Origin: a bacterium
GTDB lineage: Bacteria; Bacillota_I; Bacilli_A; Izemoplasmatales; UBA1188
Direction of reading: 5' to 3'
NCBI GenBank assembly: GCA_017541975.1
Contig: JAFXYB010000002.1
Coordinates: forward strand, 335 to 64,334
DNA length: 64,000 nucleotides
Below the pieces are notes generated by a model. That model worked only from the letters and a program-made list of their open reading frames with translations, ran no database searches and was not told the DNA's origin. Of the stretch, positions 6,900 through 57,523 are shown one piece after another (the first letter of the stretch is position 1; each line of letters opens with the position of its first letter). The position numbers and the translations under genes were made by a program.

Positions 6900-8204
6900 A
6901 TGAAAATACGACGACTACCCGTACTTCATATAGAAGGTTACAAGGAACTCTCTATCAAAACTGCACCAAAAGAGTTTCTTAAACCAGAACACGTCTATAT
7001 TCCAACCTTACTTCCAAGCCCAATGGATGTAAAGAAAGAAGTAGGCGACCATGTTTTATTAGGCGAAGTGATTATGGAATCTAGAGGCAGATTCCCTTAT
7101 CCAGTTTTATCACCAATAAGTGGTACTGTCACTGCGAAAGTAAAGAAATGGTATCCATCAAACAAGATGTCTGATATGCTTGAAATCACCAACGATTTCA
7201 AGGAAGAAACTGTAGACACCTTTAAGAATCTTGATCCAGATAACATGACGAGAGACGAACTCATCGAAGTAATGAGAAAATCTGGTCTAGTTGGTCAAGG
7301 TGGCGCAGGTTTCCCTGCATATGTGAAATATGCCACAAAAGAAAAGGTAGATATGGTAATTATCAACCTTGCAGAATGTGAACCATTTATTACCTGTGAC
7401 TATACATGTGTTCTATATAATGCCCAAACATTTATCTATGGCTTTAGATATCTATTAAAAGCTGCAGATTGTAATCAAGGCATAATCGCAATAAAAGATA
7501 AAGATATAAACACAAAAGTTATAGATTATCTTGAACCACTTCTCGATTCAAATATGAGAATCGAACTATTAAAAGATGTATATCCAGCAGGTTGGGAAAG
7601 ATACACAGTTGAAACAATATCACATAAAACTTATAAAGCACTTCCAATAGAAGCTGGTGTAATTGTTTCAAACGCATCAACTTGTTACTCATTTGCGAGA
7701 ATGTTAAAAGAAGGTGTTCCACCATCGGTTAAGTATCTTACAATCACTGGTGATGCTGTAAATAGTCCAGGTAATGTACTCGCTAAGATAGGTTCACCAA
7801 TCCCAGAAATCCTACCACTATTTGGTGGACTAAAAGAAGGACACAATCCAGAAAACACTCATATAATTGCTGGTGGCCCAATGACTGGTAAATCAATGTT
7901 CTTCCCTGATTTCATCACAACACAAACCTTAGGTGCAGTAATTTTCCTAGAAAATAAGAATAAAGATAAAAAACAACTGGAATGCTTAGGGTGTGGTAGA
8001 TGCGCAGAAAGATGCCCATCATTCCTAACTCCTGTAGAAATAAAGAAAGAATTAGCTGTTGGAAATATTGAGGAGTTAAAGAAACTCAACGTTACAAAAT
8101 GTATTCAATGTGGACTCTGCTCATTTGTTTGCCCATCAAGAATTGATTTAACATATTCTGTAGGGAAAGCAAAAGAAATGGTTCTAAGGCTTGGGAGGAA
8201 GTAG
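6900..8204 (+). CDS. rnfC: Rnf electron transport complex subunit C
   Basis: GQGGAGFPAYVK nucleotide/FMN motif and two 4Fe-4S motifs, CLGCGRCAERCP and CIQCGLCSFVCP. First gene of the rnfCDGEAB order. Confidence 0.92.
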   Translation: MKIRRLPVLHIEGYKELSIKTAPKEFLKPEHVYIPTLLPSPMDVKKEVGDHVLLGEVIMESRGRFPYPVLSPISGTVTAKVKKWYPSNKMSDMLEITNDFKEETVDTFKNLDPDNMTRDELIEVMRKSGLVGQGGAGFPAYVKYATKEKVDMVIINLAECEPFITCDYTCVLYNAQTFIYGFRYLLKAADCNQGIIAIKDKDINTKVIDYLEPLLDSNMRIELLKDVYPAGWERYTVETISHKTYKALPIEAGVIVSNASTCYSFARMLKEGVPPSVKYLTITGDAVNSPGNVLAKIGSPIPEILPLFGGLKEGHNPENTHIIAGGPMTGKSMFFPDFITTQTLGAVIFLENKNKDKKQLECLGCGRCAERCPSFLTPVEIKKELAVGNIEELKKLNVTKCIQCGLCSFVCPSRIDLTYSVGKAKEMVLRLGRK

Positions 8205-8206
8205 TT

Positions 8207-9373
8207 ATGGCAACAAAATATCTAGTAACTAATGCTCCATATCTTAGAAGTTCGGATCATGGCAGATCAACCCATACTGTAATGAGAGATCTACTTATTG
8301 GTCTTTCCCCAGTTATTTTATTCTCTATCTTCAAGAATGTGATAATGGTATTCATAAAAGGTGGTTACACATCAGTTTTACAAGCCATTTATCCTCTTAT
8401 CACACTCATTGTTGGTCCACTTACTTCAGCACTATTAGAAATGCTTTGTCTCTTTATTATGAAGAGAAAAGAAATCTCTAAATTTAGCGATTTATTAGAA
8501 GAAGTTAAAAATGGTTTTGGTTTCTTCCCAGGCTTATTTATTGTATTAATTTCACCTGTATATATCAATATGTGGGTGCTAATAGTATCCGTTGCAGTAG
8601 GTGAAGTTGTCGGCAAGATGCTCTTTGGTGGTTTTGGGCAAAACATCTTTAACCCAGCAATCATAGGAAGAGCATTTATGGCCTTCAGTTTCTCTAATCA
8701 AATTGGTGTATCATGCTTTGACCCAGCATTAAATTCATATCTTAACGCTTATGAAGCAACTGCAGTTGATGCAATTGCTGGTGCTACACCTCTTATTAGA
8801 TATTCTGGATTAACTGATATTAGCTATGTAAATGCAGTTGAACCATTTGGAAATCTTCTTGATTTCTTCCTAGGAACCATTCCAGGTTGTCTTGGAGAAA
8901 CAAGTTTCCTTGCTTGTTTAATTGGCTGCATCTATTTATCTGTTAGAAAGGTAATAGATTACAAAGTCCCATTAATCTATGTATCTACAGTATTCCTTAA
9001 TACATTAATCGCTGGTCTCTTTATGGGACAGGGAATATGGTATCCAGTATTCCAAGTTCTATCAGGCGGTCTCATGTTTGGTGCCGTATATATGGCTACT
9101 GAACCTGTAACCTCTCCTAAGACAAATCTAGGTAGAGCAATGAACGCAATGATGCTTGGTGTATTAACCGTATTATTCAGACTTGTCGGAAACAACCCAG
9201 AAGGTGTTGCAACCGCAATCGTCACAATGAATATCTTCGGTCTATTAATCAATAGATACGTTGTAAGAGTAAGAGTAGATGGTAAATTAGATAAGAATGA
9301 AGTTCCAGGTTTAGTTATATTCCTCGCAATCTTCACACTTATCTTTGTCTACAACATCATTATGATAGTCTAG
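8207..9373 (+). CDS. rnfD: Rnf complex subunit D
   Basis: Polytopic NqrB/RnfD-like membrane protein with the FMN-attachment-like motif DAIAGATPL. Confidence 0.9.
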   Translation: MATKYLVTNAPYLRSSDHGRSTHTVMRDLLIGLSPVILFSIFKNVIMVFIKGGYTSVLQAIYPLITLIVGPLTSALLEMLCLFIMKRKEISKFSDLLEEVKNGFGFFPGLFIVLISPVYINMWVLIVSVAVGEVVGKMLFGGFGQNIFNPAIIGRAFMAFSFSNQIGVSCFDPALNSYLNAYEATAVDAIAGATPLIRYSGLTDISYVNAVEPFGNLLDFFLGTIPGCLGETSFLACLIGCIYLSVRKVIDYKVPLIYVSTVFLNTLIAGLFMGQGIWYPVFQVLSGGLMFGAVYMATEPVTSPKTNLGRAMNAMMLGVLTVLFRLVGNNPEGVATAIVTMNIFGLLINRYVVRVRVDGKLDKNEVPGLVIFLAIFTLIFVYNIIMIV

Positions 9374-9384
9374 GAGGTAAAGAT

Positions 9385-9903
9385 ATGAAGAATAACTTAA
9401 TTACCGGCTTAGTATTATCAGTTTTCGCTCTAATATGTGGACTTATGCTATCGGTTGTAAATATGTTTACTGCACCGATAATAGAAGAGCGCACAGAAGA
9501 AAAAATCAATAATTCAATCATGGAAGTATGTGAAATCTACCGCGAAAACAAAGACACATATACAATTGATAAAGAATCAATTACCCATGATGAGGTAGAC
9601 TCTGTTTATCTAATAAAAAATGAAAATGGAGAAAAGGTTGAGGTTATATATATCATAAGTGCTAAAGGATATGCTTCAACTATTCAAATGATGGTTTCAG
9701 TCACCAAAGATCATAAAATTGAAAAATCAGTTGTAATTTCATCAGCTGAAACTAAAGGAAATATTAAAACTCATGATTTCAATATGGAAGGCAAAGACTC
9801 TCTAGAAGATTTTGATAAACTCGCAGGGTCAACCATTTCATCTAAAGCAGTAAGAAAGTGTTTTTATACGGCTTTAGATCTATCATATGAGGATCTTAAA
9901 TAG
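9385..9903 (+). CDS. rnfG: Rnf complex subunit G (FMN-binding)
   Basis: N-terminal TM anchor and a C-terminal FMN-attachment-like LAGSTISSKAV. Operon position. Confidence 0.85.
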   Translation: MKNNLITGLVLSVFALICGLMLSVVNMFTAPIIEERTEEKINNSIMEVCEIYRENKDTYTIDKESITHDEVDSVYLIKNENGEKVEVIYIISAKGYASTIQMMVSVTKDHKIEKSVVISSAETKGNIKTHDFNMEGKDSLEDFDKLAGSTISSKAVRKCFYTALDLSYEDLK

Positions 9904-9910
9904 GAGGTTA

Positions 9911-10591
9911 ATGATGAATAAGAAAGAAAACTTCCTTAAAGGATTTATCAAAGAAAACCCATTATTTGTACTGCTTCTTGGTACATGTCCTGCCCTTGCA
10001 ATTACTACATCCCTTGAAAATGCTCTTGGAATGGGTGTTGCATTCATATTCGTACTCGTAATGAGTAATACTATTATTTCTCTAATCAATTCATTCAAAA
10101 AACTAAAAGAATTAATTCAACCAGTTAGAATTGCAGTTTATATTGTAATAATCGCAAGCCTTGTAACAATCGTAGAAATGCTTATGCAAGCATATCTTCC
10201 AGATTTATATAATTCACTCGGTGTATTCATATCTTTAATTACCGTTAATTGTATAGTTCTTGGAAGAGCCGAAGCATATGCTTCATCAAATACCGTAGGT
10301 GATTCTGTAATAGATGGTATATCAATGGGCCTTGGTTATACACTTGCCTTAATTATCATATCTATAGTGAGAGAATTACTCGGTAACGGTACAATTACTA
10401 TTTGGGGTGATTTACAGCTCAACCTACAAGGTGTATTCGATTTTCTACATATTACAACCATTTCATTCTTTACATCTAGTGCTGGTGCATTTATGGTTTT
10501 AGGTATCGTCCTTGCGATAATGCAAGCAATAAAAAACGGTAAAGAAGAAAAAGCAAAAGAAGCTGAAAAAGCGAAGAAGGAGGTTAAATAA
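9911..10591 (+). CDS. rnfE: Rnf complex subunit E
   Basis: ATG at 9911 follows AGGAGG. LLGTCPALAITTS motif of the NqrD/RnfE family. Lys/Glu-rich C-terminal tail. Confidence 0.9.
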   Translation: MMNKKENFLKGFIKENPLFVLLLGTCPALAITTSLENALGMGVAFIFVLVMSNTIISLINSFKKLKELIQPVRIAVYIVIIASLVTIVEMLMQAYLPDLYNSLGVFISLITVNCIVLGRAEAYASSNTVGDSVIDGISMGLGYTLALIIISIVRELLGNGTITIWGDLQLNLQGVFDFLHITTISFFTSSAGAFMVLGIVLAIMQAIKNGKEEKAKEAEKAKKEVK

Positions 10592-10593
10592 TT

Positions 10594-11286
10594 ATGTCAT
10601 TTAGTCAAATAATCTTCATCATTTTCTCTTCAATGCTTCTTGAAAACGTTATTCTATCTCAATTCCTTGGAATTTGTTCATTCCTCGGAGTTTCTAAGAG
10701 TAGAAAGAGCGCAGTTGGTATGGGCTTATCAGTTGTTGCAGTAATCGTTATCGCCACAACTGTCACATGGCTAATATATAATTATGTATTAGTATTATTT
10801 GATTTAGTATATCTAAAGACCATTGTGTTTATATTAGTAATCGCATCACTAGTACAAATTATTGAAATAATCATTAAGAAGTTCGTTCCTACCCTCTATA
10901 AATCTCTTGGTATTTATTTACCACTTATTACGACAAACTGTGCCGTTCTTGGCGTTGCCATTAAAGCTGCGCAAAATGGTTTAACATTCTTCCATATGCT
11001 TCTTTATGCACTTGGATCTGGACTTGGTTTCTTATTAATAATGTTTATCTTCAGTTTCTTAAGAGAAGAATTAGATAAGAGAAAAATACCTAAAGCAATG
11101 AGCGGTATTCCAATTGCCCTTGTGGTTGCATCTATTCTCGCGATTATCTTCTCAAGATATGTAGGTATCGTAAAAGAAAGCGATAATAACGAAGAAAAAG
11201 AACTTCCACGCACAACTAATGTAATTATTATGCATAATGCTCCTAGTGAAGACTATTTAAATAATATTATGAGGAGGATGAAATAA
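10594..11286 (+). CDS. rnfA: Rnf complex subunit A (with ~40-aa C-terminal extension)
   Basis: ENVILSQFLGICSFLGVS and PLITTNCAVLGVA motifs of the NqrE/RnfA family. Confidence 0.9.
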   Translation: MSFSQIIFIIFSSMLLENVILSQFLGICSFLGVSKSRKSAVGMGLSVVAVIVIATTVTWLIYNYVLVLFDLVYLKTIVFILVIASLVQIIEIIIKKFVPTLYKSLGIYLPLITTNCAVLGVAIKAAQNGLTFFHMLLYALGSGLGFLLIMFIFSFLREELDKRKIPKAMSGIPIALVVASILAIIFSRYVGIVKESDNNEEKELPRTTNVIIMHNAPSEDYLNNIMRRMK

Positions 11287-11567
11287 TGCCAATTCTAATC
11301 GCAGTATTAGTTATGCTTGTTTTGGGTTTTGTACTAGGGTTTATAATTGCACTAGTATCAACTAAATTCCATGTAGAAGAAGATACAAGACTCACAACTA
11401 TTGCATCTCTCCTTCCTGGTGCTAACTGTGGTGCATGTGGAAATCCTGGTTGCCAAGCCTACGCACAAAAAATCTTTGATAAAGAATCAGATGGTAATGA
11501 TTGCACCGTTATAAAAGGCGAAGCAAAAGAAAAACTACTTGAATATATCAAAGAGAATATAAATTAA
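11286..11567 (+). CDS. rnfB: Rnf complex subunit B, minimal 93-aa form
   Basis: N-terminal TM helix, then LPGANCGACGNPGCQAYA...C, the N-terminal Fe-S domain of RnfB. No ferredoxin-like 4Fe-4S domains follow. Confidence 0.8.
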   Translation: MPILIAVLVMLVLGFVLGFIIALVSTKFHVEEDTRLTTIASLLPGANCGACGNPGCQAYAQKIFDKESDGNDCTVIKGEAKEKLLEYIKENIN

Positions 11568-11652: not shown

Positions 11653-11728
11653 GGACCTTTAGCTCAGTTGGTAGAGCAACTGACTCTTAATCAGTGGGTC
11701 CACGGTTCGAGTCCGTGAAGGTCCACCA
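11653..11728 (+). tRNA. tRNA-Lys (anticodon CUU), CCA encoded
   Basis: 76 nt. Acceptor GGACCTT/AAGGTCC, D-arm AGCTCAGTTGGTAGAGC, anticodon stem ACTGA/TCAGT with loop CTCTTAA (CTT), T-arm CACGG-TTCGAGT-CCGTG, 3' ACCA. Confidence 0.95.
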
Positions 11729-11739
11729 CTTTGTCAATT

Positions 11740-11770
11740 ATCACTAGTCTTATGACTGGTGATTTTTTTA
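11740..11770 (+). terminator. Intrinsic terminator after tRNA-Lys
   Basis: ATCACTAGTC / GACTGGTGAT stem (one G-U pair), TTAT loop, followed by TTTTTTT. Confidence 0.8.
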
Positions 11771-11781
11771 TTTAAATTAAG

Positions 11782-11863
11782 TGCCAAAACGGCATATAAA
11801 CAAAAATCAAGTATGCCAAATTGGCATATTCTTATTGAATTAATGTGCCAATTATGTTATTAT
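11782..11863 (+). promoter_or_regulatory. Promoter with palindromic operators upstream of the HTH-MNT/HepT pair
   Basis: TGCCAAAACGGCA (11782-11794), the perfect palindrome ATGCCAAATTGGCAT (11813-11827), and a half site TGCCAATT (11846-11853) inside the spacer of TTGAAT (11835-11840) - 17 nt - TGtTATTAT (11855-11863). Confidence 0.6.
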
Positions 11864-11881
11864 ATTAGCGGAGATGATATT

Positions 11882-12361
11882 ATGAATATATTAGATATTA
11901 GAAATCAGTACAATTTATCGCAAAAAGAAGCAGCATCAATTATTAATATGCCACTAAGAACATTCATTCGTTATGAAAAAGATAACAGTTATGGCAACGA
12001 AATGAAAAGGCAGTCAATAATTAGAACACTTATTGAAAAAAATGAAATTACTGAAACGAAAGGCCTACTAACTATTGACCAAATTAAAGAATCATTAACG
12101 AAATTATTTGATGAAAAATACAAAGATCAAATTGAATTTTGCTATTTATTTGGAAGTTATGCGAAAGGATACGCTAAAGAATCTAGTGATATTGACTTAT
12201 GCATTGATACTTCATTAACGGGATTAAAATTTACTGGGTTAAGTGAATCAATAAGAGAAGCATTACATAAAAACATTGATTTAATTAGATTCTCAAATTT
12301 AGACAATAATATTGAACTAATTAGCGAAATAATGAAAGATGGTATTAAGATTTATGGATAA
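11882..12361 (+). CDS. HTH (XRE-like) + minimal nucleotidyltransferase (MNT) antitoxin
   Basis: ATG at 11882 follows GGAGA. N-terminal LSQKEAASIINMPLRTFIRYE helix-turn-helix, and nucleotidyltransferase motif FGSYAKGYAKESSDIDLCID. The longer track ORF (11759) overlaps the tRNA terminator. Confidence 0.8.
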   Translation: MNILDIRNQYNLSQKEAASIINMPLRTFIRYEKDNSYGNEMKRQSIIRTLIEKNEITETKGLLTIDQIKESLTKLFDEKYKDQIEFCYLFGSYAKGYAKESSDIDLCIDTSLTGLKFTGLSESIREALHKNIDLIRFSNLDNNIELISEIMKDGIKIYG

Positions 12362-12698
12362 TAACAAGGATGATAAATATTATGCAAAAAAAGCAATTGA
12401 AAATATTGCTGCCATAGAAAAATATATCTCAACCATTAGCTACGATCAATTTGTATTAGACGATGAACTTATAGATGCGGTTATGTTTAGGTTTATTCAA
12501 CTTGTTGAAAATATCAAAAACATATCTACAGAATTCAAAGAACAAAACAACGGCATCCCATGGGGAGACATTATTGGTTTTCGAAATGGTATAGTTCATG
12601 ATTACGGCCATACTGATTATAAAATAGTATATGAAACCGCTGTTAATGATTTAAAAGATTTAAGAATCGCTTTTGAAAATTATTATAATTTATGTTAA
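12339..12698 (+). CDS. HepT-like (DUF86/HEPN) toxin
   Basis: HEPN R-x4-H motif in FRNGIVHDYG. Overlaps the MNT gene. The alternative start ATG at 12354 overlaps the MNT stop. Confidence 0.8.
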   Translation: MVLRFMDNNKDDKYYAKKAIENIAAIEKYISTISYDQFVLDDELIDAVMFRFIQLVENIKNISTEFKEQNNGIPWGDIIGFRNGIVHDYGHTDYKIVYETAVNDLKDLRIAFENYYNLC

Positions 12699-13057: not shown

Positions 13058-13843
13058 ATGGATAAATTTTACCCACTGATAGGTATATTATTGATTTTCG
13101 TATGTACCACAATAGGTGCCCTATTTGTATTTTTTATTCGTGATAAAAACATCTCTCCAAAATTAAATAAAATATTTATTGGTTTTGCAGCCGGAGTAAT
13201 GCTTTCTGCTTCGTTCTTTTCGCTCATTAAGCCAGCATTAGAATCAAATGTTGCATATATGCCAACTTGGATTATTGTTGCAATATCTATTGTTCTAGGT
13301 TCTTTGTTTTTGTTTGGAATTGATAAAATTGTTCCTCACCTTCATATTCAAGAAAATAAAGAAGAAGGTCTAATTAATAACCATATGTCTAAAACAAGCA
13401 AAATGTTCTTAGCGGTCACAATCCATAATATTCCAGAAGGACTTTCTGTAGGTATCGCTTTTGGTGTTGCACTTTCTATTCCTGATAACCACGCATTATT
13501 ACTAGGTGCATTGCTTCTTGCAATTGGTATAGGTATACAAAACATTCCAGAAGGTGCGGTTGTTTCACTACCTATAAAGGCAGAAACCGGATCTTCATCA
13601 AAAGCCTTTTTATTTGGTATGCTTTCAGGAGTGGTAGAACCAATTGCTGGTGTAATTGGTCTATTACTTGCTCTAAAAATTCAAGGCATAATGCCTTGGG
13701 CACTTGCTTTTGCAGCTGGTTGTATGATTTATGTTGTTGTTGAAGAGATGATTCCAGAAATGAAAGATGATGATCATGATCACTTTGGTGTTTGGTCATT
13801 TATCATTGGATTTGTAGTAATGCTTATTCTAGATTGTCTCTAA
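13058..13843 (+). CDS. ZIP family divalent metal transporter (ZupT/GufA-like)
   Basis: HNIPEGLSVG and QNIPEGAVVS signature helices, 8 predicted TM segments, His/Asp-rich DDDHDH segment. SD GGAGG lies inside the end of the HMA gene. Confidence 0.88.
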   Translation: MDKFYPLIGILLIFVCTTIGALFVFFIRDKNISPKLNKIFIGFAAGVMLSASFFSLIKPALESNVAYMPTWIIVAISIVLGSLFLFGIDKIVPHLHIQENKEEGLINNHMSKTSKMFLAVTIHNIPEGLSVGIAFGVALSIPDNHALLLGALLLAIGIGIQNIPEGAVVSLPIKAETGSSSKAFLFGMLSGVVEPIAGVIGLLLALKIQGIMPWALAFAAGCMIYVVVEEMIPEMKDDDHDHFGVWSFIIGFVVMLILDCL

Positions 13844-13909
13844 AAACATCACAAAAAATACATAAATTAAGAATATGTGTAGTTACACTACACTAAAAAA
13901 AGAAAACAA

Positions 13910-13938
13910 TTGACAAATTTGTTGAATAATGATATATT
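13910..13938 (+). promoter_or_regulatory. Sigma-A type promoter of the riboswitch/giant-protein operon
   Basis: TTGACA (13910-13915), 17-nt spacer containing TG, TATATT (13933-13938). Confidence 0.7.
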
Positions 13939-13964
13939 AACGTGGAAGCGTGAGAATATCATAA

Positions 13965-14045
13965 AATGCTTCATAAGGCAAAACTAGCGTAAGCTAGCGA
14001 CGCAAAGCTATAGGGTCTAATAAAGACAGCCAGTTGCAGTTTATC
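13965..14045 (+). promoter_or_regulatory. Candidate c-di-GMP-I (GEMM-I) riboswitch aptamer
   Basis: AAGGCAAAAC-CTAGC-GTAA-GCTAG-C-GACGCAAAGC-TATAGGGTC...GACAGCCAGTTGC. This matches the GGCAAAC / GNRA-capped helix / GACGCAAAGC signature of class I c-di-GMP aptamers (compare Vc2). Confidence 0.7.
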
Positions 14046-14080
14046 ACTCTTTTGTGATAGAAAAAGGCTGTCTTTTTATT
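14022..14080 (+). terminator. Riboswitch expression-platform terminator
   Basis: AAAGACAGCC (14022-14031) pairs with GGCTGTCTTT (14066-14075). Inner hairpin TATCAC/GTGATA, followed by TTTATTTT. The 5' arm overlaps the aptamer 3' half. Confidence 0.7.
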
Positions 14081-14107
14081 TTGAATCTAAGGAAAGGAGG
14101 AGTAGTT

Positions 14108-15049
14108 ATGAAATTATCTAGAAAAAAACTTATTTCAGCAATAGTAAGTTTATCTTTTGCTAGTCTACTTGCTTTCCTTACAATTTTCTTCTTCACTGAT
14201 TACTCTTTAGGTTGGTATTCAGAAAATAGATATGTACAATCAAGAGGAATTGGTATTACAGTCGAATCACAAAGTGCCGTTACAACTCTCTCATGTTATG
14301 CATTTAGATATGATGGTATGTTTGGGGCTGTTTGTTTAGACGTAAGTAATAACCCAGAAATTGCCATGTCTGAATATGACGTTATCTTCACTGATAAAAA
14401 CGTTAATACACCATTATTCTTTAGAGTTGTTGCACAAGGTATTCCAAACACTGAAGGTGGATATATTAGTGTTACAATTCCATGCACAACACCAAATTAT
14501 TCTCAATCATCAAACACAATAACTGCTGGTGATGGTCTTAATGCACAAGGCGTATTATCAAATGTTATCACATGTAAACTTGGTTGTGGATTAATTGAGA
14601 ATGCTAGAAGGGTTACAGACTCATATTTCCCTGTAGAAACTTCAGAAACTAGAGTGGAAGATAATGTCTCTATATTTACTGGTGTTCGTGATCTTATGAA
14701 ACCAGCTAATGCATCAGCAAACAAAGTTGTATCAGGAAAATACATCAATAATATTCAAAAAGATAATGATGGTAATATCACATCAGCCAGCAAAACAACC
14801 ACAGCCATTACTCTTACTCTAAATTATGAAGACTATGCCGATTATCTATGTGGCGTTGAATTAGATGAAGATGGAATAGTAACCGATTATGATTATGAAG
14901 CAGAAGAAAAAGATTGCTTAGTATTCTACATCGAAATAGATTACGACGACGATCTAGTAAACATGTTTAGATCTCATACAAGCGAAGATACTCTTGCAGA
15001 ATTCAGAAATGATATAGGAACAATATCTATAAAGGAAGTTTGGGGATAG
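14108..15049 (+). CDS. Hypothetical exported/membrane-anchored protein (313 aa), partner of the giant protein
   Basis: ATG at 14108 follows AAAGGAGGAG. N-terminal KK + hydrophobic segment + YSLGWYSE motif. No recognisable catalytic motif. Acidic C-terminus. Confidence 0.75.
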   Translation: MKLSRKKLISAIVSLSFASLLAFLTIFFFTDYSLGWYSENRYVQSRGIGITVESQSAVTTLSCYAFRYDGMFGAVCLDVSNNPEIAMSEYDVIFTDKNVNTPLFFRVVAQGIPNTEGGYISVTIPCTTPNYSQSSNTITAGDGLNAQGVLSNVITCKLGCGLIENARRVTDSYFPVETSETRVEDNVSIFTGVRDLMKPANASANKVVSGKYINNIQKDNDGNITSASKTTTAITLTLNYEDYADYLCGVELDEDGIVTDYDYEAEEKDCLVFYIEIDYDDDLVNMFRSHTSEDTLAEFRNDIGTISIKEVWG

Positions 15050-15051
15050 GA

Positions 15052-18000
15052 ATGAAAAAACTAAGAATTGAAACTTTCAAGTTGTTGCTTGTAATTGCTC
15101 TTATATTTGGGACAATCACCACATCTGTTTATGGTTGGTTCTCTAGTAAAGCAAACACAATCTCAACAAAAGTAACCGGAAGCATCGTGTTTGAATATTT
15201 CCATTGTGGCGACGGATCAGAAGAAAATCCGTTTGTTATAACACGCCCTATTCACTATTATCACATGGTTGAATTCTTCCAAAGGATTACAATTCTAGAT
15301 ATTGGAAATAATGAAAAGGCAAATTTTGGTAAAGACTATCTTTATTTCCAAATTGGATGTCCTCTTGCACAGCTCGGTGACCCAACAAATACAAATGGTC
15401 CTGTAGATGCAAATGACTGGTATGTATTTGATTATTCTAATACTGGTGGTGTAAACGAAAAAACCAACGCTCAGGGCGAAATAGTTGCCCCAGGAACAAA
15501 TGCTCTCGCATCTAAAACGCTCAATATGGCGTATTATTCAGGTGAAAGAGCCCTAATGCCAACAGGTTCATCTGAGGTTCCTTTCTTAGGATCAATCGAT
15601 GGCCATAAGATGACAATAGATAATCTACACATTGTATCTAGTTCAATAGTCAATGTCGTAGATGAACACGGAACAATACATTCAAATGTTCAAAGACATA
15701 CCGCAGATATGGGTGTGTTTGGTTGTGTAGCACAAGGCCTTGATTTAAATGAAGATGGTACAGTTGCGAATGTTGTTGAAAACGACGTAGTTACACTTCG
15801 TGAACAATCTTCAATCAAAAACTTATATATTACCAATGCAACAATAGACTTAGATGGTACTGCAACATCTACAGAAATAGTAGGCGATCTTCCAACTCTT
15901 CCAAATGGAGATCCAACTCACTCTAACGATTACCACCTAGTAAATGAAGATGGTGAAGTAGTAGAAGAAAACGGTACAGAAATTGCCTATGTTGGTTATG
16001 TTGCAGGTCACGTATTCTCAACAGACGATATCACAGACGTGTACGTAAATAATTGTAGAATAGTTGGTGGTACTGCATCCCTTACCGGCTATGGTTATTT
16101 TGGCGTTATCATCGACCCAACTACAGGTGACACGGTATCATCATTAGGTTCAGCAATTGCGAACATCTATACATCTGGTGATGGTAGCGGATTCGGTGGT
16201 AGTATTGGTATGACTGACCTCTTTACTAGAATTGGTAATGTGAGAGATGCATCATCAAACATTAGAAATATTACAGCTGAAACAGTAATTATTGATGAGG
16301 TTGCTGGTACAACAACCAGGATTGCAACTGCATATGCAAACCAAGATGCATATAACCCAAGTCGTTCAAGCAACAACAGTGAGTTTATACAATATCACTA
16401 TAGCCCTGAAAGCGGTCTTTATTATATCTTCTTTAGAGGAACCAACACTCAAGGCTATAACTATTTATGGGGCGAAAATACTCGTCTTCAAACCAAAACA
16501 GTAACCACCATAACATATGAAAAAGATCTAGATACTGGATCTTATAAAATGGTTGATGGTTATATTATTTATGAAGGATCACAAAACTATCTAGGAACAA
16601 GTGCTACAACTACAACTAGTGCAACCCTTGCAGGTGTAAGTCAAGCAAATGCAAGAATATTGTCTTTTGATGATAGTAATCACTTATATTTCATTGCACC
16701 AGTAAATTTCACTCAAAATTATGATTATCCATATAACGATAATGAAAATGGTGCAATCGATACTATTTTCTATCTAAATGCAGCAAATAATTACCTTGGA
16801 GTAACAGCAGCAAATAACGCTTCAACAACCTGGGCATTTGATGAAGATAATAGACTTTATACAACAAATAATCAAACAAGATACTATCTTGACTACAACA
16901 ATGATAATTGGTATCTAACACCAGTTACATCTTTCTCAATCTTTAAGGATGGCGAAGGCAATTATTTAAAAATTACTGGAACATCTCTTGATAATACAAC
17001 AGTAGAAGCTGATGCATCAAAATTAGAACTTTCAAATCCTGAAGCATCAACTACAATTACAACAATAATAAATGGTACAAGATACTACCTTAGAAGTAAT
17101 GCTGGCACACTCGAGTTAAACACAACTGCAAACAATCATCAATGGTCATATGATTCTACCAAAGGTGCATATTATATGACTTATGGGTCAACAAAATACT
17201 ATATCGCATGTGATGATGATGTATGGAAAATGAGACCAGAGGGATATAACTATCTGATATCTGATACTGGTAATTATTTAAATGCAACATCGACAACTGC
17301 ATTTACTAATGTTACCGATTCAACAGCAGCATCTTATTGGAATTTAGATCCTAATGCAGCCACTACAACAATTTCAACTATCATATCCGGTACAGTAACA
17401 TATCTCGGTGTAAATAATGGAAACTTAGTGCTTGGTACTGGATATAACACCTCTTGGACAAAAGAAGGTGATGCTTACTATACAACTATTGATGGAACTA
17501 AGTTCTATTTGGGTTTCGATGGCACATGGAAGATAGATTATTCAGGCTATAAACTTGGTGATGGAAACGGTAATTATATCAATGCATCATCAGCAACTGC
17601 AATTAATAATCAAACAAATGCTTCAAACGCTTCTACATGGTTATATGATCCAGATAGTGCAACTACTACAATTTATACATATGTAAATGGAACAAAGACA
17701 TATCTTGGAATAAATAATGGTGCTCTAGCACTAAATGCAAGTTATAGTACAACATCTTGGACTAAGGACAACGATGGATACTATATCACAAACACAGACG
17801 GCATTAAACAATATATTAGATATAACAATGGTTGGATTGTTCAAATAGATGGATATAAGATTAGTAATGGAGCTACTAACTATTTAACAGCAACAAGTGC
17901 AACTGCAACTGGCAATACAACAGAAGCAAATGCTGCTATATGGGTTCTTGATCCAGACAGTGCAACTACTACAATCTTTACTTATGTAAATGGTACCAAG

Positions 18001-21000
18001 ACATATCTCGGTGTAAATAATGGCGCTCTAGCACTAAATGCAAGCTATAGTTCAGTCGCTTGGACTAAAGAAAGTGCCAATAGTTATTACGTACTTGTAG
18101 CTTCAGAAAAAGCATACATTACATATGATAATGGATGGAAAATAGCATACGAAGGCTATAGAATTAAAAATACTGCCAACAACAACTGGCTAAGTGCATC
18201 AAGCCAAACTGCAATTACAAATCAAACTACTCAAGCAAATGGAAGCATATGGATTTTAGATCCAGACGCAGCCACTACAACAATCGCAACAATCTATAAT
18301 GGCACTAAGACATATCTTGGAGCTAATGGATATGCTCTCGCATTAAACACATCATATTCAGGAACACTTTGGACAAAAGAAGGCAACACCTATTACATTG
18401 AGTCTAATGAAGGTGTAAAACTATACCTAATTTATGATAATGGATGGAAGCTTGGATATGATGGTTATACAATAAAAGATAATAGCGGCAACTATTATCT
18501 ATCCGCTAATGGAACTACAATACAAAACCAAACAACTCAAGCAAATGGCACATCATGGATTATAGATAGAGATGAGAATACAACAAAAATATTCTATATC
18601 TATAACAACTCTACTCCGTATTATCTTGGAATTGATAATAATGAAAACCTTGCAGTTGGAACAGCTTATAGTTCAACAATTTGGACAAAAGACGGAAATA
18701 GTTATTATACAACTTACAATGGTATTAATTACTATTTCACCTATTTAGCTAACGGCTGGAGAGCTCTTCCTAAAGAGTACGTTAGAATTATGATGAATGG
18801 TTATTATATGTATCTTTATAGCGGTACTGCAGTTAGAAATAATGCTAATCCAACAGCCACAGCAGCTAATTTCTATAGAGATTCTCAAAATAGATATTAT
18901 GCTTTCTATAATAACAACAAGACATATATTAGAAACAATAATAATACAGTTCAAGCAAGTACAACTATAGGACAAGCAGCAGAAATTCTAAGAGAAGGGA
19001 ATATACTTTATGTTCAAAGCGGCAATAATAAGCTATATATTAATCAAACTTCAACGTCTACTTATAGTAGTACTGCGTGGAGTTTTTCGGCAGCTAATGT
19101 TGCCCGCTATGCAATAGGAGATGGTTCTGGTCACTATCTAAATGTTACAGGAACTAATGCTAATTCTTATGAAACTGTAAATAATGCTCAAAATGCAACT
19201 CACTTTGTATTCTCAAGTACAACATCGGGTACTATTTCAACTACAGTAGATGGAACAACTTACTATCTCAGAAACAATAATGGTACTTTAGAAGTGAGCA
19301 CAACTAGTACTACATGGGATATTACAACAAATGGTATAAGTAATGATGGATATAATCTAAGATACAATAATGGAAACTGGGAATTAGTAACAGTATATTA
19401 TGTTTTAAGATCTGGTACAAGCTATATGGGATATTCTGGAACCGATGTAACTGTGGTTTCATCAAAGAATGATAGTAATATTCTTTTGTTTAAAAACATT
19501 CCTACTACAACAGGAACCGATTATACTCTTGAAGTTAAAGCTGGTAATAATGAATATAACCTATATTGCCCAAACAACACTAACAATTCCGCTGTTTCTC
19601 TTAGTACGAACGCAAGAAACTGGAGAACAGATGCAAACGGAAGATTGTTTTATAGATATAGCAACACCAGAAGTTACTACTTACGTCTTACAGGTGGGGA
19701 TTGGCAAGTAAACAGAACTCAAGCAAATGGTAGCACAATAACATTCGAACTATATGATGACTCTATTCAAACTAACATAACTAGAACGGAGTTCTTATAC
19801 GGAAACGAAGTAGCAACTGACAACACAAACACTTATGCGCAAACATTTGCAGCTGCTTCAGTTACAAAGAATTTAACACCACAACAATATACAGTTACAA
19901 AGAATTTCAACGCTGCATATATTGACCCATATTTCGCTCTTGCAAATACATCACACGATGCAGCAAGAACAATAACTATCAGTGAGTCTTTGATGGTTTA
20001 TGGTATTACAGATACTGTTCCACTAAACATTAATAGAATCACACAAAGTCAAAAGGCAATCAAGATAGGTGCACAAGAATCCGGCCTTCCAACCGGTTTC
20101 ACCACATATATGCCTATTCGTATAACTGGTAGTGAAGATTCTGATTATGATTCAAATAGTCCTTTCAAAGCATCTTTAAAGAACACAGGATATATTATTG
20201 GCGGTGGTAATTTCTACGTTCAAGGAAACAGTGTTGGTGATATTCGTGTATCTAGATATGCTAAGGACAATATTTCTTCTTATAGAACAACTGATTACAC
20301 CACTCTTTATACTATTGATGGAAATGGCATTAGAAGACTAAATTCAAACGATTTAAATAAATATATGTCATTCAATGATTCACAAGATGCTGATGGAAAC
20401 ACCATTTCTGGTGCGAAGACACAATTTGATGCGATGATTGGATCTTATGCTGATGGTCTTCACTTCATGAACGCCGAGATATCTACTGAGCGTCTTATCA
20501 CCGTTCCTCAAGCAACCATCCTTAATAGAACATATTATAACTACCAGTTCCCTGAAGACTGTATTGACTTTAAAGTATTAAAACGTGGTGCAATTAGTTT
20601 CTTTGCGGGTGAATACTTCACTGGAAATGATGCATTCTTCTCTCTTCATCAAATATTTAGAGATGAAGATCAAAACATCACAGATATAAAAGAGATTCAA
20701 TACGTATATAAAGTAACTGGTGCTACACTAGGAACTGCGGATTATATTTATCTTTATAAAGATGGTCTTTATGGAATAATTAACCAAGAGACAGGTAATT
20801 TTGAAGTCACTAATAAGATTTCTTTAACTCAAGAAAATAGCGCATACTTAAATGCATATTATGAAATTGCATTCAATACCGATTGGATCACAAACCCAAC
20901 AGGTGTTAGTGATTCTAATAAACGTGTTTATTATTTCGAAATTCCATGTAATAAGGGTGAATATGCCCTTGGATCTGTAACAGGAAAAACTGGTGCATAC

Positions 21001-21501
21001 CTTCTTTACCTCGATATCGCCGCAAATGGTGGTGATGAAGTCGCTGCAATCGTAAGTGGTGAAGGTAATGACGTTTCTACAACATTTAAGGTTGACTTTA
21101 GAGCTCCAGGAGAAACATCTAATTTCGCAATCTTACAGTTAGAAGTTAAGTGTCCAACTGAAGAAAATGCATCTTCTAGAGAACTCGACTCAAGACTATT
21201 TAGTGTTAGAGTTGTCTTTGACTCAAGTGAAACGGGAGCAAATAATACGTATCCGAGTGGTATATACAATATATACGTCACAAACAAAGTACCAGATACA
21301 ACGGTAAAGATTAAGGTCTTCTTAGTCGATGATGATAATGATGTATCTACAGCATTCCCATATGCATTTAGAGTGATATACACTAATACAGAATTTGAAA
21401 ATGTAACTATCACAAACATTGCTGATCTCGACTTCTATCAATCAGTTGGTGCATTTGAAATACCATTTGAAGGAGCCGGTGTAGAAGCATCCTACGACTA
21501 A
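15052..21501 (+). CDS. Giant (2149 aa) repeat-containing surface/secreted protein
   Basis: ATG lies 2 nt after the upstream stop. N-terminal KK + hydrophobic segment + VYGWFSS. GDGSEENPFVI and PFLGSIDGHKMTIDNLHI motifs, as at the start of beta-helix/GLUG-type passenger domains. About ten ~101-aa repeats. No C-terminal LPXTG. Confidence 0.85.
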   Translation: MKKLRIETFKLLLVIALIFGTITTSVYGWFSSKANTISTKVTGSIVFEYFHCGDGSEENPFVITRPIHYYHMVEFFQRITILDIGNNEKANFGKDYLYFQIGCPLAQLGDPTNTNGPVDANDWYVFDYSNTGGVNEKTNAQGEIVAPGTNALASKTLNMAYYSGERALMPTGSSEVPFLGSIDGHKMTIDNLHIVSSSIVNVVDEHGTIHSNVQRHTADMGVFGCVAQGLDLNEDGTVANVVENDVVTLREQSSIKNLYITNATIDLDGTATSTEIVGDLPTLPNGDPTHSNDYHLVNEDGEVVEENGTEIAYVGYVAGHVFSTDDITDVYVNNCRIVGGTASLTGYGYFGVIIDPTTGDTVSSLGSAIANIYTSGDGSGFGGSIGMTDLFTRIGNVRDASSNIRNITAETVIIDEVAGTTTRIATAYANQDAYNPSRSSNNSEFIQYHYSPESGLYYIFFRGTNTQGYNYLWGENTRLQTKTVTTITYEKDLDTGSYKMVDGYIIYEGSQNYLGTSATTTTSATLAGVSQANARILSFDDSNHLYFIAPVNFTQNYDYPYNDNENGAIDTIFYLNAANNYLGVTAANNASTTWAFDEDNRLYTTNNQTRYYLDYNNDNWYLTPVTSFSIFKDGEGNYLKITGTSLDNTTVEADASKLELSNPEASTTITTIINGTRYYLRSNAGTLELNTTANNHQWSYDSTKGAYYMTYGSTKYYIACDDDVWKMRPEGYNYLISDTGNYLNATSTTAFTNVTDSTAASYWNLDPNAATTTISTIISGTVTYLGVNNGNLVLGTGYNTSWTKEGDAYYTTIDGTKFYLGFDGTWKIDYSGYKLGDGNGNYINASSATAINNQTNASNASTWLYDPDSATTTIYTYVNGTKTYLGINNGALALNASYSTTSWTKDNDGYYITNTDGIKQYIRYNNGWIVQIDGYKISNGATNYLTATSATATGNTTEANAAIWVLDPDSATTTIFTYVNGTKTYLGVNNGALALNASYSSVAWTKESANSYYVLVASEKAYITYDNGWKIAYEGYRIKNTANNNWLSASSQTAITNQTTQANGSIWILDPDAATTTIATIYNGTKTYLGANGYALALNTSYSGTLWTKEGNTYYIESNEGVKLYLIYDNGWKLGYDGYTIKDNSGNYYLSANGTTIQNQTTQANGTSWIIDRDENTTKIFYIYNNSTPYYLGIDNNENLAVGTAYSSTIWTKDGNSYYTTYNGINYYFTYLANGWRALPKEYVRIMMNGYYMYLYSGTAVRNNANPTATAANFYRDSQNRYYAFYNNNKTYIRNNNNTVQASTTIGQAAEILREGNILYVQSGNNKLYINQTSTSTYSSTAWSFSAANVARYAIGDGSGHYLNVTGTNANSYETVNNAQNATHFVFSSTTSGTISTTVDGTTYYLRNNNGTLEVSTTSTTWDITTNGISNDGYNLRYNNGNWELVTVYYVLRSGTSYMGYSGTDVTVVSSKNDSNILLFKNIPTTTGTDYTLEVKAGNNEYNLYCPNNTNNSAVSLSTNARNWRTDANGRLFYRYSNTRSYYLRLTGGDWQVNRTQANGSTITFELYDDSIQTNITRTEFLYGNEVATDNTNTYAQTFAAASVTKNLTPQQYTVTKNFNAAYIDPYFALANTSHDAARTITISESLMVYGITDTVPLNINRITQSQKAIKIGAQESGLPTGFTTYMPIRITGSEDSDYDSNSPFKASLKNTGYIIGGGNFYVQGNSVGDIRVSRYAKDNISSYRTTDYTTLYTIDGNGIRRLNSNDLNKYMSFNDSQDADGNTISGAKTQFDAMIGSYADGLHFMNAEISTERLITVPQATILNRTYYNYQFPEDCIDFKVLKRGAISFFAGEYFTGNDAFFSLHQIFRDEDQNITDIKEIQYVYKVTGATLGTADYIYLYKDGLYGIINQETGNFEVTNKISLTQENSAYLNAYYEIAFNTDWITNPTGVSDSNKRVYYFEIPCNKGEYALGSVTGKTGAYLLYLDIAANGGDEVAAIVSGEGNDVSTTFKVDFRAPGETSNFAILQLEVKCPTEENASSRELDSRLFSVRVVFDSSETGANNTYPSGIYNIYVTNKVPDTTVKIKVFLVDDDNDVSTAFPYAFRVIYTNTEFENVTITNIADLDFYQSVGAFEIPFEGAGVEASYD
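16543..19719 (+). repeat. Tandem in-frame ~303-nt (~101-aa) repeat array inside the giant gene
   Basis: Unit starts at 17242, 17545, 17851, 18154 and 18463 (periods 303-309 nt). An exact 20-mer GCTCTAGCACTAAATGCAAG occurs at 17722 and 18025. More diverged units flank on both sides. Confidence 0.85.
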
Positions 21502-21511
21502 TAAAATACTT

Positions 21512-21544
21512 AAAAGCGCTTTCTTTTGAAGGCGCTTTTCTTTA
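21512..21544 (+). terminator. Intrinsic terminator after the giant gene
   Basis: AAAAGCGC / GCGCTTTT stem with a 12-nt loop, followed by a T-rich run. Confidence 0.6.
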
Positions 21545-21576
21545 TAATATAGGTGTAAATATAAGGTGGTTAAAAT

Positions 21577-31576: not shown

Positions 31577-31595
31577 ATAAGTGGGAGGAGAATTT

Positions 31596-31847
31596 ATGAC
31601 AGTTACTAATATTTCTGTTTTGAGAAGCAATCTATTTAGTTCTATTGATAATGTAATTGAGTACAACGATTCTATTACTGTTAGCACAAAAAAAGGAAAT
31701 GCGATTATTATTTCCGAAGATGAATACAACGCCATGTTAGAAACCATTTATTTAATTTCTCAGAAAGGTCTAGTTGAAAAGATTAAAGAAGGCGAAGAAG
31801 AAGATATTTCTATGATGCCAACTTATAATCCTAACGAAGAGTGGTAA
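31596..31847 (+). CDS. yefM: YefM/Phd family antitoxin
   Basis: ATG follows GGGAGGAG. ITVSTKKGNAIIISEDEYNAMLETIYL is the typical Phd/YefM core. Gene ends 2 nt before the toxin ATG. Confidence 0.88.
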   Translation: MTVTNISVLRSNLFSSIDNVIEYNDSITVSTKKGNAIIISEDEYNAMLETIYLISQKGLVEKIKEGEEEDISMMPTYNPNEEW

Positions 31848-31849
31848 TT

Positions 31850-32095
31850 ATGTGGATTATTAAATTCACTAAAAATGCAGAAAAAGATAAAAAGTTAATT
31901 AAAAGCACTGGATTAGAAGAAAAAGTAAAGAAACTATTAAATCTTATCGCTAAAAGTCCCTTTCAAAACCCGCCAAGTTATGAAAAGCTTGTTGGTGATT
32001 TACAAGGCTATTATTCTAGAAGAATTAATCTACAACATAGGCTTGTATACAAGGTTTATGAAGACATTAAAACGGTTGTTATTCATTCGATGTGA
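31850..32095 (+). CDS. yoeB: YoeB/Txe family toxin, truncated by TGA before the catalytic C-terminal His-Tyr
   Basis: YYSRRINLQHRLVYKV core of YoeB. The ORF stops at TGA 32093-32095 after ..VVIHSM. The same frame continues SHYEDN-TAA (to 32116), which restores the family C-terminal HY. Confidence 0.8.
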   Translation: MWIIKFTKNAEKDKKLIKSTGLEEKVKKLLNLIAKSPFQNPPSYEKLVGDLQGYYSRRINLQHRLVYKVYEDIKTVVIHSM

Positions 32096-56502: not shown

Positions 56503-56527
56503 AAAGACTGATTTCAGTCTTTTTTTG
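56503..56527 (+). terminator. Intrinsic terminator
   Basis: AAAGACTG / CAGTCTTT stem followed by TTTTT. Confidence 0.8.
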
Positions 56528-56584
56528 CTATTATTTGAAACATGTGATAAAATATCTATTACTACAAAGTGGGAGGTATTCATA

Positions 56585-57520
56585 ATGAATATTGAATTAT
56601 TTAAAAACTATACAGATAGAATAATAAAGAATTGCAGTAAGATTATTCTCGGCAAAGAAGAAGTAATCAGGCAAGTTATTGTCACTTTTTTAAGCGGAGG
56701 GCATGTACTACTTGAAGATTTACCAGGCACAGGAAAAACAATGTTACTCAGAGCTTTTTCTAAATCGATTGGTGGTGATTTCAAAAGAATCCAGTTTACA
56801 CCAGATTTACTACCATCAGATTTAACTGGCATAAATTTCTATAATCAAAAAGAAGGTACTTTTGAATTTAAGAAAGGTCCATTATTTTCAAGCATCATTT
56901 TAGCTGATGAAATTAACCGTGCAACTCCAAGAACACAATCTGCACTTCTTGAGGCAATGGAAGAAAGACAAATCACAGTAGATGGTAATACATATCCAAT
57001 GAATGTTCCATTTATGGTTATGGCAACTGAAAACCCAGTTGAATCATATGGTACATTCCCACTCCCAGAAGCACAAATCGACCGTTTCTTTATGAGACTT
57101 TCAATGGGCTATATGGAAAGAAGCCAAGAATTAGAAGTTATGGCTAGACCTAGCACCCTCGCTCTTCTTGATGATCTTGAAAAAGTTGTAACACAAGAAG
57201 AAACTGATGAACTCCAAAAAGAATTCTCAAAAGTAAAAGTTTCAGATGATGTTTCAAACTACATCCTAAACATTGTAGACTTTACACGTCAAGATGAACA
57301 CTTGCTTGCGGGTGTTTCAACACGTGGTGCCATTGCTCTATATAAGGCTGCACAAATCACAGCCGCAATGGATGGAAGAGACTACGTAATTCCTGAAGAC
57401 GTTAAAAAGGAAGCTATTTCAATTCTTTCACATAGAATTGTTTCAGGTTCTGGTAATCATATAGAAGCTGAAAAATATATAGAAAACGTATTAAAAGATG
57501 TTGAGGTTCCACTAGAATAA
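56585..57520 (+). CDS. MoxR-like AAA+ ATPase
   Basis: ATG at 56585. Walker A LPGTGKT, Walker B ILADEINR, and the typical MoxR length of about 311 aa. Confidence 0.9.
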   Translation: MNIELFKNYTDRIIKNCSKIILGKEEVIRQVIVTFLSGGHVLLEDLPGTGKTMLLRAFSKSIGGDFKRIQFTPDLLPSDLTGINFYNQKEGTFEFKKGPLFSSIILADEINRATPRTQSALLEAMEERQITVDGNTYPMNVPFMVMATENPVESYGTFPLPEAQIDRFFMRLSMGYMERSQELEVMARPSTLALLDDLEKVVTQEETDELQKEFSKVKVSDDVSNYILNIVDFTRQDEHLLAGVSTRGAIALYKAAQITAAMDGRDYVIPEDVKKEAISILSHRIVSGSGNHIEAEKYIENVLKDVEVPLE

Positions 57521-57523
57521 CAT

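Follow-up and report, generated by a model that had tools for sequence, protein, structure and literature searches.

The 64,000-nucleotide (nt) stretch of bacterial DNA analysed here (the window) encodes, on its forward strand, two adjacent proteins of 313 and 2149 amino acids (aa) that fall into no recognised family. What controls the transcription of these genes? Positions 13910-14107 are the promoter and 5' leader of the two-gene operon at 14108-21501, and an original prediction had proposed that this leader carries a class I cyclic-di-GMP (c-di-GMP) riboswitch, also called GEMM-I, overlapping a terminator. We find that the leader RNA, judged by covariance model and conservation, is a genuine class I c-di-GMP riboswitch aptamer, and we consider it likely, from the way in which aptamer and terminator share sequence, that it serves as a transcriptional ON switch of the operon. 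Taken as a whole, the locus adds one more case to a well-known riboswitch class, combined with an expression platform of a known type, and standard annotation would detect its aptamer.

A class I c-di-GMP aptamer in the leader

We scanned the whole 64-kb window with all 4227 Rfam 15 families at their gathering thresholds. Two matches only were returned, c-di-GMP-I (RF01051) and one tRNA. The alignment to RF01051 spans model positions 1-87 of 87, this model scores best within its clan, and the match lies far above the curated threshold, in agreement with the GEMM-I class originally assigned. A chance match is ruled out by the E-value together with the conservation and covariation among homologous leaders described below. 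The parts of the aptamer are as follows.

13967-14041, + strand: c-di-GMP-I (GEMM-I) aptamer, RF01051, 60.6 bits against a gathering score of 35, E = 2.2e-9
13975-13984, + strand: conserved block AAGGCAAAAC, from the sequence
13984-13997, + strand: P1b hairpin, CUAGC/GCUAG, with GNRA tetraloop GUAA at 13989-13992, from the Rfam alignment
13999-14008, + strand: conserved junction GACGCAAAGC, near-invariant in an alignment of 18 leaders
14006-14035, + strand: P2 hairpin, AGCU/AGUU, GG/CC and GUC/GAC, with the 7-nt loop UAAUAAA, from the Rfam alignment
13977, + strand: ligand-contact position G13977, equivalent to G20 of the Vibrio cholerae aptamer Vc2
13978-13979, + strand: G13978 and C13979, pairing with G14002-C14003 (Vc2 G21-C46 and C22-G45), invariant in 18 of 18 leaders
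14004, + strand: A14004, equivalent to Vc2 A47
14007/14034, + strand: G14007-U14034, equivalent to the Vc2 G50-U89 wobble
14037, + strand: C14037, equivalent to Vc2 C92, kept in 17 of 18 leaders

Vc2 numbering was transferred through the Rfam alignment, with the Vc2 pairings taken from PMC11705072 and the roles of G20 and C92 from PMC5888326. In Vc2 itself, G21 pairs with C46 and C22 with G45, G50 and U89 form a wobble, and the ligand pairs with C92 (PMC11705072); G20 pairs with one guanine of the ligand, and C92 is the Watson-Crick partner of the second (PMC5888326). The Vc2 ligand-contact nucleotides G20, A47 and C92 are thus all present in the window, including the combination of G20 and C92 that is specific for c-di-GMP.

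The distal part of the aptamer is compact. The P2 distal stem lacks 13 consensus positions of the model and has a single position in their place, which corrects the earlier description. The P1b tetraloop is of the GNRA type in 18 of 18 leaders, while the distal P2 that would bear its receptor is replaced in the window by the UAAUAAA loop, and the A/U-rich P2 loop may itself be a minimal tetraloop receptor. A short loop of this kind (14017-14027 in the window) measures 7 nt in the window and in leaders L001, L007-L009, L013 and L018.

Conservation and covariation in homologous leaders

The 313-aa protein has 23 relatives in a collection of 5.8 billion proteins, all of them unnamed or "hypothetical" and from metagenome assemblies; an identical protein is IKQ02_00210 at NCBI, from a metagenome-assembled genome (MAG) labelled "bacterium". 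A scan of species-representative genomes gave nine loci with a homologue. Eight are in rumen MAGs; the labels are Firmicutes, Bacilli, Erysipelotrichaceae and Bacillales, with one genome of Subdoligranulum sp. in addition. A match to the c-di-GMP-I clan (56.7-74.7 bits) lies directly upstream of the homologue in 9 of 9 loci, and an aptamer was likewise found upstream in all of the contigs fetched via four further homologues. Two distant operons of Clostridia type, reached through the giant protein at about 30% identity, also start with c-di-GMP-I (L019 272-347 and L020 1215-1290). A third such operon, L021, showed no aptamer within the 3 kb fetched.

We aligned 18 distinct aptamers from these rumen and gut Firmicutes leaders and counted pairs on the Rfam structure. 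Standard pairs occupy 97.1% of cells, and compensatory changes occur at 7 of the 17 pairs, comprising all six model pairs of P1b and one of P2. P2 is paired in 100% of cells, and L019a and L020a have AU in place of UA at the middle GUC/GAC pair. For covariation the score is 0.396; shuffled alignments give 0.144 +/- 0.018, and 0 of 500 attain 0.396. As a control, when the partners are slid by 1-3 columns, 15-37% of cells are paired. The GGCAAA and GACGCAAAGC blocks, on whose conservation in homologous leaders the prediction had been staked, are kept in 18 of 18, with stems that carry compensatory changes.

Some leaders are variants. A replaces G20 (AAAAGCAAAAC) in L007 (2882-2956), L008 (1977-2051), L009 (2307-2381) and L018 (1881-1955), which come from rumen MAGs of Erysipelotrichaceae/Bacilli type and not from Geobacter. 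The Subdoligranulum sp. leader, L004 (392-486), has c-di-GMP-I-GGC (RF03167) and not RF01051 as its best model, at 59.6 bits against a gathering score of 59; its downstream gene nonetheless encodes a 313-aa protein homologue, and the overlapping terminator is retained.

The terminator shares a strand with the aptamer

Downstream of the aptamer, and partly within it, lies the following element.

14022-14082, + strand: intrinsic terminator with a 10-bp stem (14022-14031/14066-14075), an inner 8-bp hairpin (14040-14061) and a U-run (14073-14082)

The arm AAAGACAGCC (14022-14031) has a perfect complement in GGCTGTCTTT (14066-14075), and TTTTTATTTT follows up to 14082. The inner hairpin is set off from the basal stem by an internal loop, a second correction to the earlier description, and the U-run ends 25 nt before the ATG at 14108 and not about 27 nt as first given. 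The minimum free energy (MFE) fold of 13945-14085 has -40.5 kcal/mol (z = -3.3 against shuffles) and includes the terminator, P1b and a 5' hairpin. For 13967-14082, the terminator fold is at -35.2 kcal/mol, compared with -22.4 when the aptamer pairs are enforced and the terminator is thereby excluded.

The 5' arm of the terminator is the 3' strand of aptamer P2, with no intermediate anti-terminator element. The two folds are thus mutually exclusive, as had been proposed, and the overlap recurs in 17 of 18 leaders, L017 being the only one that has no terminator. The overlap comes in two registers. In one, the 5' arm is AAGACAGCC (the window, L002, L003, L004, L010b, L013, L015 and L020b); in the other, (G)CCAGUUGC and the 3' tail with the C92 position make up the arm (L001, L005-L008, L018, L019a, L019b and L020a). 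That the same competition is reached in two registers argues for selection on the competition itself between aptamer and terminator. Moreover, since the P2 3' strand is the terminator 5' arm and no anti-terminator intervenes, a stabilised aptamer could only prevent termination, which is the logic of an ON switch.

Proposed mechanism and alternative explanations

Under this scheme, transcription would start near 13945 and the aptamer (13967-14041) would be complete some 25 nt before the terminator 3' arm (14066-14075) is made. Binding of c-di-GMP through G13977, A14004 and C14037 would lock the P2 3' strand (14025-14035) in the aptamer, leaving GGCUGUCUUU without a partner, so that no terminator would form and RNA polymerase would continue into the genes for the 313-aa and 2149-aa proteins. 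In the ligand-free state, the stem 14022-14031/14066-14075, which thermodynamics favours, would form and, together with the U-run, stop transcription near 14080. We favour this ON switch because of the RF01051 score, the ligand-contact nucleotides, the conservation and covariation of the leaders, the conserved overlap, the precedent of the Bacillus riboswitch Bc2 (discussed below) and the clean limits of the transcription unit. From these features we infer both binding of the ligand and, for regulation in vivo, its direction and size.

A number of observations weigh against an ON switch of this kind. The direction of a class I riboswitch cannot simply be assumed from its class, given that in Clostridioides difficile all seven functional class I c-di-GMP riboswitches are OFF switches; moreover, 5 of the 16 c-di-GMP riboswitches predicted there are non-functional (PMC6366702). 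The closing helix P1a, which in Vc2 forms upon ligand binding, is marginal in the window: the best 5'/3' duplex found by a duplex search has -0.1 kcal/mol and is no better than shuffles. P1a is clear in only 2 of the 18 leaders and weak or absent in most relatives, as in the window, and is not part of the curated Rfam consensus; because the family model does without it, a weak P1a lowers confidence in tight binding and not in membership of the class. The reduction of distal P2, which in Vc2 bears the tetraloop receptor, to a 7-nt loop could mean a lower affinity or a different docking. Lastly, six-frame translations of the 64-kb window contain no GGDEF, EAL, HD-GYP or PilZ motifs, and Pfam scans of its larger open reading frames (ORFs), covering most of those with 120 aa or more, did not detect a c-di-GMP cyclase or phosphodiesterase either.

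The aptamer might be real and yet belong to an OFF switch, in which the ligand favours termination, or to a translational one, in which it hides the ribosome-binding site (RBS). The C. difficile precedents would fit such a reading, as would the V. cholerae riboswitches, which are not termination-based (PMC6366702), and the relative L017, whose start codon comes 15 nt after the aptamer with no terminator between. In the window, however, the sole strong helix with a U-run uses the aptamer 3' strand as its 5' arm, and this two-element wiring is common to all the leaders but L017; the RBS (14090-14102) comes after the terminator, with no evident complement to it anywhere in the leader. Wiring of either sort is therefore, in our view, highly improbable. 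There is a similarly slim chance that the aptamer recognises a different cyclic dinucleotide, such as cGAMP (3',3'-cyclic GMP-AMP), as GEMM-Ib riboswitches do. The A at position 20 of L007, L008, L009 and L018 is the change that defines the cGAMP-binding or bispecific GEMM-Ib aptamers (PMC6140456), and L004 scores best as the c-di-GMP-I-GGC variant. The window aptamer, by contrast, has G and not A at this position, its G13977 and C14037 form the c-di-GMP-specific pair, and RF01051 is its top model in the clan; wildtype Vc2, which has G20, binds cGAMP at ~10 uM compared with picomolar c-di-GMP (PMC6140456).

The weak P1a, the missing distal P2 and the lack of c-di-GMP enzymes in the window could also be the marks of a decayed relic whose terminator attenuates the operon constitutively, and the non-functional predicted riboswitches of C. 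difficile (PMC6366702) provide examples of such a fate. Against decay, the binding core is near-invariant and the stems are compensated, though the identity between the diverged proteins is down to 28-35%. Each of the two tandemly duplicated operons of L010 retains an aptamer of its own, the terminator overlap is kept in two registers, and in L020 a second aptamer stands before an EAL phosphodiesterase gene adjoining the operon. A relic thus appears quite unlikely, and the ON switch is the reading with which we continue.

The putatively regulated proteins

The genes that the switch would control, and the end of their transcription unit, are these.

14108-15049, + strand: gene 1, 313 aa, family not recognised, with an N-terminal hydrophobic helix, a G-W-Y-S motif and a predicted beta-rich domain
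15052-21501, + strand: gene 2, 2149 aa, family not recognised, its ATG two nt after the gene 1 stop
21512-21548, + strand: operon-closing terminator, 12-bp stem at 21512-21539 plus a T-rich tail

The unit is cleanly bounded, with a near-consensus promoter in front and the closing terminator right after the giant gene. At the N-terminus of both products is a long hydrophobic helix, and next to it comes a motif whose tryptophan never varies: SLGWYSEN in the 313-aa protein, with W36 invariant in 23 sequences, and VYGWFSSKAN (G-W-F-S) in the giant protein, with W29 invariant in 45 sequences. Tandem repeats, about nine in number and each of about 100 aa, lie between residues about 570 and 1600 of the giant protein, which also has conserved N-terminal and C-terminal regions of about 450 aa each.

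Neither protein, whole or by its N-terminus, matched Pfam or NCBIfam even at E <= 10. For the giant protein, three segments searched separately against Pfam also gave nothing at E <= 10, phmmer found no match among PDB sequences, and 0 of 44 homologues carry a precomputed Pfam domain. An AlphaFold2 model of the 313-aa protein (predicted local distance difference test score, pLDDT, 77; predicted template modelling score, pTM, 0.74) is mainly beta; Foldseek returned no PDB match for it at E <= 0.001, and only non-significant matches to beta-sandwich adhesins and to folds like carbohydrate-binding modules (TM about 0.15-0.2). A model of the N-terminal 483 aa of the giant protein (pLDDT 77.5) is likewise mainly beta, with no PDB match at E <= 0.001 and weak beta-helix-like (polygalacturonase) similarity at E around 1.

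Are these proteins adhesion or biofilm factors, as the original prediction had expected? Because both are without a detectable family or fold, that label is unproven. Support for it comes from the signal-like N-terminal helices, the approximately nine repeats and a SipW-type peptidase in the operon of L020, and we consider it plausible, on account of size, repeats, export signals and c-di-GMP control, that the products are adhesin/biofilm or matrix factors made in the sessile, high-c-di-GMP state. As for SipW-dependent matrix proteins of the TasA type, no TasA/camelysin domain, signal-peptide model or sipW was found in the window, nor any signal-peptidase motif. A TasA/SipW-type signal peptide, considered as a lead, is not claimed, no NCBIfam model having matched either N-terminus at E <= 10.

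Operons of relatives

An [A/G/S]-W-[F/L/I] motif heads 6 of 7 other proteins read from related operons. In the operon of L020, the aptamer is followed by the gene for a SipW-type signal peptidase I and then by those for the small and the giant protein. Its peptidase, the first gene, matches TIGR02228 at 65.3 bits (cutoff 51.85), and its small protein belongs to the same family as the 313-aa protein (hmmsearch, 1.7e-16). This arrangement suggests, by analogy with TasA or BsaA (PMC7395162), that the small and giant proteins are exported and processed by a dedicated peptidase.

Some further features of these relatives were seen in passing. In L020 (1215-10932), the second c-di-GMP-I aptamer (8128-8205) follows the giant gene and precedes the EAL-domain gene, beyond which lie two more small proteins, one with an A-W-F motif at its N-terminus. 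In L010 (2200-17435, 17537-19354), the pair of small and giant genes is tandemly duplicated, with riboswitches at 2200-2278 and 9861-9939. Just past the second giant gene there, a group II intron has been inserted together with its reverse transcriptase, ahead of acetyltransferase and nucleobase permease genes, the same as those behind the window operon.

Layout of the leader

The remaining elements of the leader flank the aptamer and terminator.

13910-13938, + strand: sigma-A type promoter, -35 TTGACA at 13910-13915, 17-nt spacer, extended -10 TGaTATATT at 13930-13938
13945-13972, + strand: 5'-terminal hairpin of 7 bp, GAAGCGU/AUGCUUC, from the MFE fold, adjoining the aptamer
14090-14110, + strand: RBS AGGAAAGGAGGAG at 14090-14102, a strong Shine-Dalgarno sequence, and the gene 1 ATG at 14108, from the sequence

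The promoter matches the consensus at 11 of 12 positions and has the additional TG; it is the top-scoring site within 13500-14500 in a consensus scan, and predicts a transcription start at about 13945. It stands, like the aptamer blocks and terminator arms, exactly where it had been placed originally. Promoter-like hexamers also occur at the equivalent position of leaders L001, L004, L008, L010b and L013.

The 5' hairpin, a feature of the predicted fold, is possibly an mRNA-stabilising stem-loop at the start of the transcript. Its 3' arm covers nucleotides that the 5' strand of P1a would use. A hairpin of other sequence lies at the same position in L013 (GAAGAU../..AUCUUC), and a palindrome in L002 and L015. 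For the terminator hairpin of the leader, a role in ending the upstream gene zupT is ruled out: zupT ends at 13843, about 180 nt upstream of that hairpin, and the promoter at 13910 intervenes.

Surroundings of the operon

The operon lies between zupT, upstream of the promoter, and a gene for a maltose/galactoside-type acetyltransferase. Further upstream are genes for an Rnf-type complex (6900-11567; RnfC-like, RnfD/E-family and flavin mononucleotide-binding), followed by the tRNA found in the Rfam scan (11653-11725), which ARAGORN identifies as tRNA-Lys(CTT). Among relatives, L015 has Rnf-Nqr and iron-sulphur (FeS) genes and then a tRNA ahead of the riboswitch operon, and L002 has two tRNAs ahead of it. 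Between tRNA-Lys(CTT), placed at 11653-11728, and the metal-transport genes of the window lies a toxin-antitoxin-like pair (11759-12698), consisting of an MNT-like nucleotidyltransferase and a HepT-like RNase. A second pair, of 88 and 84 aa in overlapping genes (31581-32095), is a toxin-antitoxin candidate by its appearance.

The only cyclic-dinucleotide enzyme found in the window is GdpP, a cyclic-di-AMP (c-di-AMP) phosphodiesterase. It is encoded at 40847-43300 by a single 817-aa ORF that joins the GdpP-type part (PAS, degenerate GGDEF, DHH and DHHA1 domains, residues about 86-647) to a complete ribosomal protein L9 (residues 667-812). As a rule, gdpP and rplI are neighbouring yet separate genes. 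Elsewhere the window encodes an 826-aa leucine-rich-repeat protein of BspA type (50480-52960) and, at 56525-59832, a MoxR-type AAA ATPase followed by proteins of 361 and 407 aa without a Pfam match at E <= 1e-6.

Significance and comparison with known systems

The RNA itself, a textbook GEMM-I aptamer with ON wiring like that of Bc2, brings no novelty to riboswitch biology. It is of value as a functional label, since it ties a family of giant (1.2-2.4 thousand residues) and small proteins to c-di-GMP signalling, and through this link the family probably serves an attached or biofilm lifestyle. The hosts are uncultured rumen and gut Firmicutes, for which attachment to plant fibre matters. With the linkage kept in at least 18 leaders and through an operon duplication, induction by raised c-di-GMP offers a tractable handle on these proteins.

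A fuller reading is conceivable, although we rather doubt it in its entirety: that the operon represents an undescribed c-di-GMP-induced module of a small beta-rich and a giant repeat protein, including both the assembly of a fibre or adhesin and a distinct aptamer subtype. If true, the module would occur widely among Bacilli and Clostridia of rumen and gut and would bear no detectable relation to known adhesin, pilus or matrix families. Its proteins, with their N-terminal helix and [A/G]-W-[F/Y/L] signal, may undergo SipW-type processing and form an extracellular fibre or adhesin. The aptamer would be a compact GEMM-I subtype without P1a, with a hairpin loop replacing the tetraloop receptor, and the members with A20 might sense cGAMP outside the Deltaproteobacteria.

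How does the locus compare with systems already described? The tapA-sipW-tasA operon of Bacillus subtilis and sipW-bsaA of Clostridium perfringens (PMC7395162) encode proteins that resemble the regulated ones here in their N-terminal hydrophobic segment and aromatic motif. TasA and BsaA have no similarity of sequence or fold to the window proteins, and the link to sipW, absent from the window, is found only in L020, where the operon led by the riboswitch opens with the gene for the SipW-type peptidase. Nor are the two known matrix-fibre operons reported here to be under riboswitch control.

Among aptamers, Vc2 (structures 3IRW and 3MXH; PMC11705072) has in common with the window the core of G20, G21-C46, C22-G45, A47, G50-U89 and C92, and the GNRA tetraloop on P1b. 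It differs in having a P1a of 4-6 bp and in the length of its P2, which bears a tetraloop receptor (A33-A62 stacking), where the window has a marginal P1a and a 7-nt A/U loop, and Vc2, unlike the window, is not terminator-based (PMC6366702). The C. difficile riboswitches of class I, Cd1 (flgB) among them (PMC6366702, PMC9262584), belong to the same Rfam family, likewise reside in a Firmicute host and act on transcription termination. They are OFF switches, in which the ligand favours termination, whereas the window is wired as an ON switch; the adhesin and pilus genes of C. difficile are turned on by class II aptamers, not class I (PMC6366702, PMC9262584).

Bc2, which lies upstream of cap, the gene for a collagen adhesion protein in Bacillus thuringiensis BMB171 (PMC4933901), was compared with the window through the literature only and not by alignment. 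The window aptamer has a truncated P2 and no evident P1a. Bc2 regulates a large exported surface protein, while the window genes have no collagen-binding, sortase or other recognisable domain. In both, a class I aptamer occupies the 5' untranslated region of a Firmicute gene, with an intrinsic terminator immediately before the ORF, and for Bc2, termination assays and mutants show that c-di-GMP promotes read-through into the adhesin gene (PMC4933901; PMC6366702), the same ON response that we propose for the window.

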